Shown: positions 6,346 through 6,979, numbered from the stretch's first letter. The stretch is 39,567 nucleotides of DNA from Limisphaerales bacterium (GCA_044225505.1 JBGAIN010000068.1:1-39567), one strand, 5' to 3'. Numbers and translations are program-made. Notes: generated by a model from the letters alone, not told the origin.

Positions 6346-6384
6346 AAAACAAAACCCGCTGCAACTGTATGAGCTGCAGCGGGT
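6346..6384 (-). terminator. Rho-independent terminator closing the tRNA/GIY-YIG unit
   Basis: 10-bp perfect stem ACCCGCTGCA (6354-6363)/TGCAGCGGGT (6375-6384), followed on the minus strand by a T-rich tail (AAAACAAAA on plus). Confidence 0.8.
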
Positions 6385-6388
6385 AAAT

Positions 6389-6446
6389 TGGTTGCGGGGA
6401 CAGGATTTGAACCTGTGATCCCGCGTCTGCGGGATTATGAGCCTGA
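6389..6446 (-). repeat. tRNA-fMet 3'-half copy 1 with hairpin substitution
   Basis: 30 nt identical to the tRNA T-arm, acceptor strand and CCA (6389-6418), a 16-nt hairpin TCCCGCAGACGCGGGA (6419-6434), and 12 nt of anticodon arm TCAGGCTCATAA (6435-6446). Confidence 0.95.
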
Positions 6447-6710
6447 GGGACCGTGGGCACGCATTAGATTCTCAAGTCCTGAGCCGCCCTTCTGGCGCTT
6501 GAAGAGGTTTTCTAGAATCCGGGCGTTTCTAAGGCTCCGAGGAGTGCTTGAGAATTCCAAGCTCCAGGGTCCTCGGCCCCGAGTCCACTTAGAAACACCT
6601 TGGTTATGCTGAGCCAGGCGGTGCTCAACGTTGTTTGTGATCCCAATATACCGACGTCCTTCCCGATTTCGCAGGACGTATACAGAATACTGAATCGACG
6701 TTGGATTCAC
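6435..6710 (-). CDS. Small stand-alone GIY-YIG nuclease (UPF0213/YhbQ-like)
   Basis: VYVL...YIGITNNVEHRLAQHNQG..KWT..RGPW.L...LENLFK retains the family Tyr/Arg/His/Glu residues; 91 aa; stop codon lies inside the tRNA anticodon-loop copy. Confidence 0.92.
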   Translation of the reverse strand: MNPTSIQYSVYVLRNREGRRYIGITNNVEHRLAQHNQGVSKWTRGRGPWSLEFSSTPRSLRNARILENLFKRQKGGSGLENLMRAHGPSGS

Positions 6711-6733
6711 AGGCGACAGACCCGCAAGGAAAA

Positions 6734-6932
6734 CGAACAGAGCTCCTTAATATGGCTCTGTTCACAAGAAATTGGTTGCGGGGACAGGATTTGAACCTGT
6801 GATCCCGCGTCTGCGGGATTATGAGCCGAGTCGATCACCGTCCCGCGTTAAACTCCCTGAAAGCGAACAGAGCTCCTTAATATGGCTCTGTTCACAAGAA
6901 ATTGGTTGCGGGGACAGGATTTGAACCTGTGA
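6734..6932. repeat. 69-bp exact direct repeat (tRNA 3' end plus trailer hairpin), 130-bp period
   Basis: 6734-6802 is identical to 6864-6932. Each copy contains the hairpin GAACAGAGC-N11-GCTCTGTTC (6735-6763 and 6865-6893). Confidence 0.95.
6773..6827 (-). repeat. tRNA-fMet 3'-half copy 2 with the same hairpin substitution
   Basis: 6769-6827 is identical to 6385-6443 (59 bp); hairpin at 6803-6818. Confidence 0.95.
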
Positions 6933-6979
6933 CCTTCAGGTTATGAGCCTGACGAGCTACCGGGCTGCTCCACCCCGCG
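6903..6979 (-). tRNA. tRNA-Met(CAT), initiator type (fMet)
   Basis: CGCGGGGTGGAGCAGCCCGGTAGCTCGTCAGGCTCATAACCTGAAGGTCACAGGTTCAAATCCTGTCCCCGCAACCA: 77 nt, full cloverleaf, CAT anticodon, C1:A72 mismatch, encoded CCA. Confidence 0.98.

Follow-up and report, generated by a model that had tools for sequence, protein, structure and literature searches.

All features of the locus lie on the minus strand of a 39,567-nt stretch of DNA (the whole of which we call the window), in the order tRNA-fMet, trailer, spacer, dead tRNA copy 2, trailer, GIY-YIG nuclease gene, dead tRNA copy 3 and terminator. The labels of the nearest homolog records point to Verrucomicrobiota as the host phylum. The target gene is an intact initiator tRNA-fMet(CAT) at 6903–6979 (ARAGORN; Rfam RF00005, 64.5 bits) carrying the C1:A72 mismatch that is an initiator trait. 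It is the one initiator form among three CAT tRNAs, and 46 tRNAs were called across the assembly; in the window, tRNA was the sole Rfam family to pass. The likely tRNA promoter, read from the sequence, is TTGCTG and TATATT separated by 16 nt (6993–7020). It fell below the threshold of a consensus scan that called no promoters in total, and ACTTGC...TATATT-like text is also present 5′ of the tRNA in relatives.

Directly behind the tRNA gene is a trailer hairpin (6859–6902) that folds with a z score of −4.6. It was brought in by the insert and is not a host-type terminator; terminator calling did not score it as one, and comparison with the tRNA flanks of relatives gave nothing above shuffle level. 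A 31-bp spacer (6828–6858), part of a gene-less 130-bp unit, separates it from dead copy 2 (6773–6827), which consists of GGCTCATAA, a hairpin (6803–6818) and a host-type T-arm, acceptor strand and CCA. The spacer was considered as a decayed tRNA 5′ half and rejected, 651 of 2000 shuffles scoring equally well; with other loci, spacer and trailer have only the shared motif in common. The second trailer (6729–6772) precedes a stand-alone GIY-YIG nuclease gene with a GTG start (6435–6710; 91 aa; PF01541, E 4e-12), which runs into dead copy 3 (6389–6446), made up of TCAGGCTCATAA, the hairpin and a host-type 3′ half with CCA. The signature hairpin TCCCGC-AGAC-GCGGGA (6419–6434) is predicted to fold both as ssDNA and as RNA. 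In both dead copies this 16-bp hairpin replaces the eight bases CCTGAAGG, that is, the 3′ anticodon strand and the variable loop. The gene uses the anticodon-loop TAA of the last tRNA copy as its stop codon, and its C-terminal Gly-Ser-stop is encoded by the anticodon stem-loop GGC-TCA-TAA. A host-type intrinsic terminator (6344–6388, called at 6354–6384) is displaced behind the last copy.

A preliminary description of this DNA had proposed a tRNA-fMet gene followed by modified 3′ halves that bracket a GIY-YIG gene, and ARAGORN, Rfam, repeat analysis and PF01541 confirmed the layout. Dead copies 2 and 3 are, as stated there, identical across 59 bp (6769–6827 versus 6385–6443) and keep the T-arm, acceptor strand and CCA. 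The trailer and the 3′ half together form a 74-bp repeat with one mismatch (99% identity), and a 34-bp repeat that starts with the base following the variable loop and extends to CCA-ATTT is common to all three tRNA units. The repeat periods of 130 and 384 bp bear out the claim of one empty and one loaded unit.

The GIY-YIG gene is the only ORF between the repeats. No integrase, transposase or reverse transcriptase (RT) was found by Pfam in 26 of the 36 window ORFs of ≥200 aa, the other 10 overlapping scanned genes in other frames. The earlier claim of an integrase-free element holds for the cassette and the scanned window ORFs and fails for the cell, whose genome has 11 phage-integrase-family and 2 RT matches. 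Elsewhere in the window, the minus-strand gene at 11440–14325, ≈ 4.5 kb from the cassette, encodes a 961-aa protein in which a metallo-beta-lactamase-fold nuclease domain is fused to an ATP-dependent DNA ligase. On the plus strand, three adjacent secreted-looking ORFs (3274–6008; 287, 338 and 280 aa) gave no Pfam match; two of them have the motif ADPYGHIHGR in common. Next to them are an ORF of 176 aa rich in His and Cys and a DUF1559 prepilin-like gene; metal handling is a possible role.

Short repeats beside a tRNA gene are hard to assemble, and of the listed contig pieces from public runs, one spans 6389–6798 and none covers the whole stretch. Contigs of runs X2 and X3, which belong to two studies (either run may be the window's own source), match the GIY unit with zero differing letters. 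The locus is thus not only an assembly artefact. Runs X6 and X23 covered the flanking DNA and had no cover over 6440–6760, X3 had none over the spacer of the 130-bp unit, and the cassette contigs in X2 and X3 stood at about half the depth of the flank contigs. Empty and one-unit alleles in near-identical strains would fit this pattern, but no contig joins across the gap and we did not retain the idea; contig depth is not copy number, and coverage gaps were not counted as evidence. Given the matching contigs, the recurrence of the design in dozens of genomes and the intact catalytic residues described below, we regard it as extremely improbable that the locus is inert debris of an old island or an artefact of assembly.

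The nuclease family and the hairpin in its tRNA copies

To describe the protein family, the window protein was aligned with 64 of 99 homolog matches. In this 65-row alignment, Y21, G23 and H35 are invariant, Y11, R31 and E67 are nearly so, and the consensus C-terminus is SSGS. The hallmarks of the GIY-YIG superfamily (Tyr, Arg, His and Glu on a three-strand fold) are present as judged by a PF01541 match above cut-off, the conserved residues, an AlphaFold model of the 91-aa protein (pLDDT 88) and a fold search. At 91 aa it is a single-domain protein of <150 aa; a search for longer relatives yielded 2 of 33 candidates and no Pfam family besides GIY-YIG/T5orf172 (weak evidence). The closest solved relative by sequence is UPF0213 (1zg2, E 1e-9) and by fold Slx1 (TM about 0.6, E 4e-3), Foldseek giving no match at E 0.001 or better. 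These nearest solved relatives are weak matches, and we know of no link of either to tRNA cassettes. NCBIfam gave only a UvrC match far under cut-off, and the ESM Atlas only generic GIY-YIG clusters. At a cut-off of E 1e-10, a profile search returned 917 cluster representatives (50% identity), some of which may belong to neighbouring subfamilies. The gene family is under purifying selection: dN/dS had a median of 0.11 and a maximum of 0.34 in 129 non-independent pairs, none of which includes the window gene, as it is too distant.

The coupling between gene and hairpin was quantified from both directions. A protein-pattern scan of metagenomes gave 516 stretches, of which 472 were confirmed and the best 80 kept; removal of 12 duplicates left 68 distinct loci, and 3 of these had too little downstream DNA. 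Among the 65 evaluable loci from these best 80 of 472, a script found the hairpin–tRNA fragment directly 3′ of the gene in 52. A further 8 had fragment variants seen by eye (60 in total) and 5 had no hairpin. Homologs are therefore strongly linked to tRNA-fMet fragments with the same hairpin, and the lack of enrichment that would have counted against the preliminary description was not seen. Upstream of the gene, the script found an intact fMet arm or another hairpin copy in 44 of 57 evaluable loci; by eye, 8 more had an fMet gene or att-like half, 2 had decayed ends and 3 had nothing within 260 bp. Conversely, a hairpin-first DNA-pattern search found 1–3 copies in each of 30 out of 401 genomes of the class, spread over 24 of 190 genera. 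The reversed control pattern had no match in the 401 genomes, so the pattern is not a chance one. Of 29 non-self hairpin loci, 24 carry a GIY-YIG gene by HMM and one a partial gene at a contig edge. The remaining four are gene-less: in three, a 5′ half capped by the hairpin precedes an intact tRNA, and the fourth is an att-like relic.

The hairpin arms are conserved at 92–100% per position in 40 protein-first loci (the CATAA positions 5′ of the hairpin were forced by the search anchor), and 57 different loop sequences occur among 119 hairpins. To the left of the hairpin, the exact match to the tRNA has a median of ∼ 10 nt and fades beyond about 9–12 nt. Across 72 loci, hairpin copies numbered one at 53 loci, two at 17, four at one and five at one, all as lower bounds; loaded units, gene-less units and arrays of one to five hairpin copies exist at other loci. 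In dead copies, the hairpin also takes the place of T-loops (10 hits by script, with some double counting) and of D-loops (3). Genome-wide, 12 hairpins were found where 11 were expected, with only 2 in tRNA context, and we rejected the idea that it is a genome-wide REP.

A different arrangement was seen at L110, L134, L135, L124, L125, L305, L306, L311 and L312, where a hairpin-capped tRNA 5′ half lies upstream of the intact gene, often with a duplicated leader; L311 has five hairpin copies. These mirror-image scars suggest breaks and repair on both sides of the hairpin. In three related genomes (L124, L125 and L127), a hairpin-capped tRNA-fMet 5′ half is inverted, on the opposite strand just past the cassette.

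The selection on the gene, the retention of T-arm and CCA in dead copies, and the position of the locus at an island target (see below) could also reflect a domesticated host function. Nuclease and hairpin would then restrict incoming ssDNA at the tRNA locus or guard an island hot spot, the copies serving as decoys or RNA-processing signals; SsnA lowers integration of NTS-bearing DNA (PMC11893778). Such a role is improbable, since presence is patchy (30 of 401 genomes), broken copies are frequent and the hairpin is not amplified over its genome-wide expectation. The overwriting of T-loops and D-loops by hairpins and the decay of 3′ ends in dead copies argue against a role as RNA.

The same design is not confined to tRNA-fMet. 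In a profile search across the order, 40 of 121 genomes gave matches, and loci were obtained for 30 of 57 matches. Among those with loci, each of the 8 strong non-self matches is preceded by tRNA-fMet or its 3′ end. Weaker matches have the design at tRNA-Asn, with a hairpin TCCCGA...TCGGGA 5′ of the anticodon loop, or at elongator Met and Lys tRNAs, with CCCCGA...TCGGGG in place of the anticodon arm. A pattern for these Asn/Met/Lys-type hairpins occurred in 18 of 201 genomes; of the 18 first loci, 15 have a nearby tRNA (Asn, Met, Lys or Val) and 13 a GIY-YIG match. A quick tree gave own branches to the fMet (98) and Met/Lys (97) proteins and to five Asn-type proteins (98), four Asn-type rows being unresolved. 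The hairpin thus varies along with the nuclease lineage and the tRNA isotype.

Other GIY-YIG types were also met. In the window's genome, an unrelated type of 80 aa with a KSGSG motif is encoded downstream of tRNA-Ala(GGC), preceded by a leader with multiple hairpins (G000:C154:22300-28000, ∼ 183–490). About 4.3 kb on (∼ 4700–5050), a tRNA-Ala copy with a decayed 5′ end stands with a second, frameshifted GIY-YIG gene; pRiA4b-ORF3-like, SEC-C and PIN-domain genes lie between the two. Similar genes follow Ala, Leu and Arg tRNAs at L298, L299, L301 and L302. A third type with a KTAWGKR motif (L289, L293 and L300) apparently lies inside protein-coding genes, the hosts at L293 and L300 being DUF1016/YhcG-like by eye. 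At these two loci, the gene is placed between inverted repeats of ∼ 13–16 bp (CCCC-RTGAGATA ... TATCTCACGGGGTGAA); L289 has the right arm, and L300 a TGAAC duplication. This type is possibly another minimal element. Two Chloroflexota records (L005 and L006, ∼ 1720–2420) have a more distantly related GIY-YIG gene between tRNA-Ser(CGA) and tRNA-Ser(GGA).

Probable target duplication and proposed cassette movement

Nine of 12 family relatives match the locus. In seven of these, a full tRNA is present and the DNA directly behind it holds no cassette; the cassette of G002 is frameshifted, and the remaining match runs into a contig end. The seven include the two same-genus genomes G004 (63% complete) and G005 (96%); the locus is thus not invariant across relatives, in line with the variation anticipated in the preliminary description. 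The window terminator aligned with the flank of an att-like half in G004 (score 63; 99th percentile of shuffles, 26) and, less strongly, with the tRNA flank in G005 (30 versus 25). As the terminator aligns with the flanks of relatives and the trailer with none, the host terminator was displaced and the trailer arrived with the insert.

At 51 of 59 loci, the dead copy and the host tRNA have the same 5′ T-stem strand; from the pool, 0.13 would be expected (kin among the loci are non-independent, and the window is among the rows). The base directly 3′ of the hairpin, T or C, also tracks the host. The window protein belongs to a supported eight-row clade (98/89) with five neighbours from CTAGG hosts and two unlabelled ones, yet the window copies have the ACAGG stem of its cassette-free genus relatives, although its five labelled clade neighbours are CTAGG. 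The host-matched T-stems suggest that the 3′ half is duplicated target rather than element-borne DNA. In L034 and L114, the 5′ stem strand is non-host and the 3′ strand host-type; this locates the junction a few bases past the 3′ end of the hairpin. We read the GGCTCATAA motif and hairpin as the fixed end of the element and the signal read by the protein, and the 3′ half as a host segment that insertion has duplicated. Host-matched 3′ halves could also arise if the intact gene took part in gene conversion afterwards. The left boundary is variable: the flank after CCA is repeated in 19 of 72 loci (in some of which the array merely runs on), not repeated in 45 and intermediate in 8.

The tRNA-fMet site is also an island target. 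In G004, a 19-kb island at this gene (L272; G004:C101:79500-99499) contains a phage-integrase-family ORF, an ECF sigma/kinase-WD40 pair, Sel1 and DUF4062/TIR, and the att-like half starts at the anticodon stem. The cassette might then be a non-autonomous satellite that a tyrosine integrase of such islands or a host RT moves in trans, with the nuclease as passenger or helper. This association of integrase, att-like half and tRNA favours that idea, as do three cassettes that sit after att-like halves (L002, L003 and L055) and the conserved GGCTCATAA, which spans the anticodon loop, a known crossover site for tRNA-targeting integrases. Help in trans is possible given the 11 integrase and 2 RT matches in the genome (G000). 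In Tsy transposons, a GIY-YIG nuclease assists a tyrosine recombinase (PMC10293859). Crossover in the anticodon loop, however, predicts host CCTGAAGG downstream and a donor T-arm in the intact gene, and the opposite was seen; with the hairpin downstream and both T-arms host-type, the simplest integrase model is contradicted. The variable left boundary is also unlike site-specific recombination, and no relatives were found in viral contigs by protein or by DNA pattern. We consider the satellite unlikely.

Anatomy, gene–hairpin coupling, patchy presence, host-matched repeats, purifying selection and arrays are all direct observations. The earlier suggestion of a minimal selfish or amplifiable unit behind tRNA genes gains support from the coupling throughout the family, the patchy presence and the arrays, and we put the probability of a mobile selfish cassette at roughly 85%. 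Its parts would be a short trailer, the stand-alone GIY-YIG gene, the tRNA-derived GGCTCATAA motif and the hairpin. Insertion would take place behind the single initiator tRNA gene and duplicate the host's own 3′ half (about 34 bp), leaving the tRNA intact and pushing the old terminator behind the dead copy. Later tandem duplication and loss of the gene would give the 130-bp empty unit.

As to the mechanism, we infer both cutting by the nuclease and movement of the cassette. The hairpin is probably the recognition signal of the nuclease, which would bind motif and hairpin in ssDNA and nick beside the hairpin, as SsnA does at NTS. Through the shared 34-bp 3′ segment, the nicked end would recombine with the tRNA gene by host repair, resulting in insertion, expansion or contraction. 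Read-through from the tRNA promoter would transcribe the GIY-YIG gene, and spread between lineages would occur by DNA transfer or by riding tRNA-fMet islands. The amplification step is modelled on SegB and the cutting chemistry on SsnA. The latter is borrowed by analogy, as the protein lies outside the NTS-adjacent clade and the SRM pattern is unmatched. On balance, we give this specific mechanism, in which the nuclease reads the hairpin and host repair does the joining, slightly better than even odds. GIY-YIG domains cut DNA and do not rejoin it, which counts against it, as do the 5 of 65 homologs without a hairpin, the 4 of 29 hairpin loci without a gene and the variable left boundary.

The nuclease may instead act as a SegB-like homing endonuclease that cuts the unmodified tRNA gene as dsDNA. 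The hairpin would then only protect the spare copies, and repeated breaks would amplify them. In each clade, the hairpin destroys the anticodon arm, and the hairpin-capped 5′ halves upstream of intact genes resemble repair scars. SegB itself, a free-standing enzyme of the GIY-YIG type, cleaves inside tRNA genes and drives segmental amplification that depends on recombination (PMC13096335). Yet resistance needs no conserved sequence, and here the arms are nearly fixed while the loops vary. Moreover, an intact target is present in every loaded allele, and the protein consists of the 91-aa domain alone; in most GIY-YIG enzymes, DNA binding has a domain of its own (PMC11893778). Homing of this kind appears to us quite unlikely.

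Returning to the mobile cassette, the hits inspected in full-text searches of mostly open-access papers included no description of it. The recombinase-free nuclease–hairpin cassette at tRNA-fMet is real and general, and apparently undescribed. More tentatively, and with less than even confidence, we propose an undescribed class of autonomous mobile elements of ∼ 300–390 bp, about as small as such elements could conceivably be, in which one hydrolytic GIY-YIG domain acts on a sequence-specific ssDNA hairpin in tRNA-derived context and host repair duplicates the 3′ half. Its lineages would be specialised per tRNA isotype, with hairpin sequence and position of their own, and the enzyme would write the hairpin into other loops of dead copies. 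If true, Ssn would be joined by a second GIY-YIG family that reads hairpins, and site-specific integration at tRNA genes would have a route that needs no recombinase; if assays confirm movement, it would be a new class of element. Movement by nick and host repair alone would explain many tRNA pseudogene arrays in uncultured bacteria and would back the published guess that Ssn–NTS originated as a mobile element. No role is known for thousands of small stand-alone GIY-YIG genes, and one large branch is now tied to a concrete target and signal; it is a possible source of further sequence-specific ssDNA nuclease tools.

Relation to known systems

Integrative elements at tRNA genes duplicate the 3′ end of the gene as attL/attR. 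Like these elements and islands, the cassette keeps the intact gene and duplicates the tRNA 3′ fragment, which is displaced downstream and followed by the host terminator. It differs in its size of ∼ 300–390 bp, in its variable left boundary, hairpin-bearing displaced copy and tandem arrays, and in having no recombinase of its own, GIY-YIG being the only ORF inside the repeats. An RT of Penelope type linked to GIY-YIG was found neither in the cassette nor in the scanned window ORFs, the two RTs elsewhere in the genome being unlinked.

The enzymes of REP/RAYT and IS200/IS605 belong to the HUH tyrosine transposases, which both cleave and rejoin DNA, whereas the enzyme here is a GIY-YIG hydrolase and insertion duplicates the target. 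The genome-wide amplification typical of REP/RAYT was not seen (12 hairpins versus 11 expected, 2 in tRNA context). The likeness to these hairpin-guided ssDNA elements, which are also discussed in PMC11893778, lies in the coupling of a small enzyme to a short sequence-specific hairpin and in the occurrence of lone hairpins, here in T- and D-loops.

SegB is phage-borne, resides in the tRNA clusters of T4/T6 and cuts dsDNA at many sites (PMC13096335, available part). Both systems have a free-standing GIY-YIG gene at tRNA genes without an integrase, and both would undergo tandem amplification by nuclease and homologous recombination. In place of the empty-allele conversion without target duplication of a SegB-type system, we found a 34-bp host-tracking duplication, and the same part of PMC13096335 describes for SegB neither a signature hairpin nor a gene ending in a dead tRNA copy.

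Ssn nucleases (cd10448; Chenal et al. 2025) are single-domain GIY-YIG proteins encoded beside NTS/SRM hairpins (PMC11893778). SsnA cleaves ssDNA a few bases to the 5′ side of a hairpin whose 6-bp arms are the same as here, and the C that follows is required; the authors note that NTS-ssnA-NTS resembles a mobile element, and the reported role of SsnA is restriction of DNA uptake rather than movement. The word tRNA occurs 0 times in the main text, and the gene tables and superfamily tree of the supplement may include relatives. The likeness extends to a ∼ 90-aa single-domain GIY-YIG protein beside the hairpin core TCCCGC-N4-GCGGGA, the C after the palindrome, the free loop and the fixed orientation. 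The cassette hairpin, in contrast, is embedded in a tRNA fragment and does not recur as a repeat across the genome, and the target is duplicated. Three NTS-adjacent GIY-YIG proteins (L138, L174 and L194), used as stand-ins for SsnA and the CDD cd10448 profile, form a branch separate from the 95-row fMet clade (99/97 split), and only 32 residues align between the window protein and one of them. The NTS pattern had no match in the genome; the SRM pattern had none in the window or in 73 metagenome hairpins, and the 6-bp arms still equal those of NTS. The cassette is most like Ssn/NTS in anatomy and most like SegB in target, and it is a member of neither.
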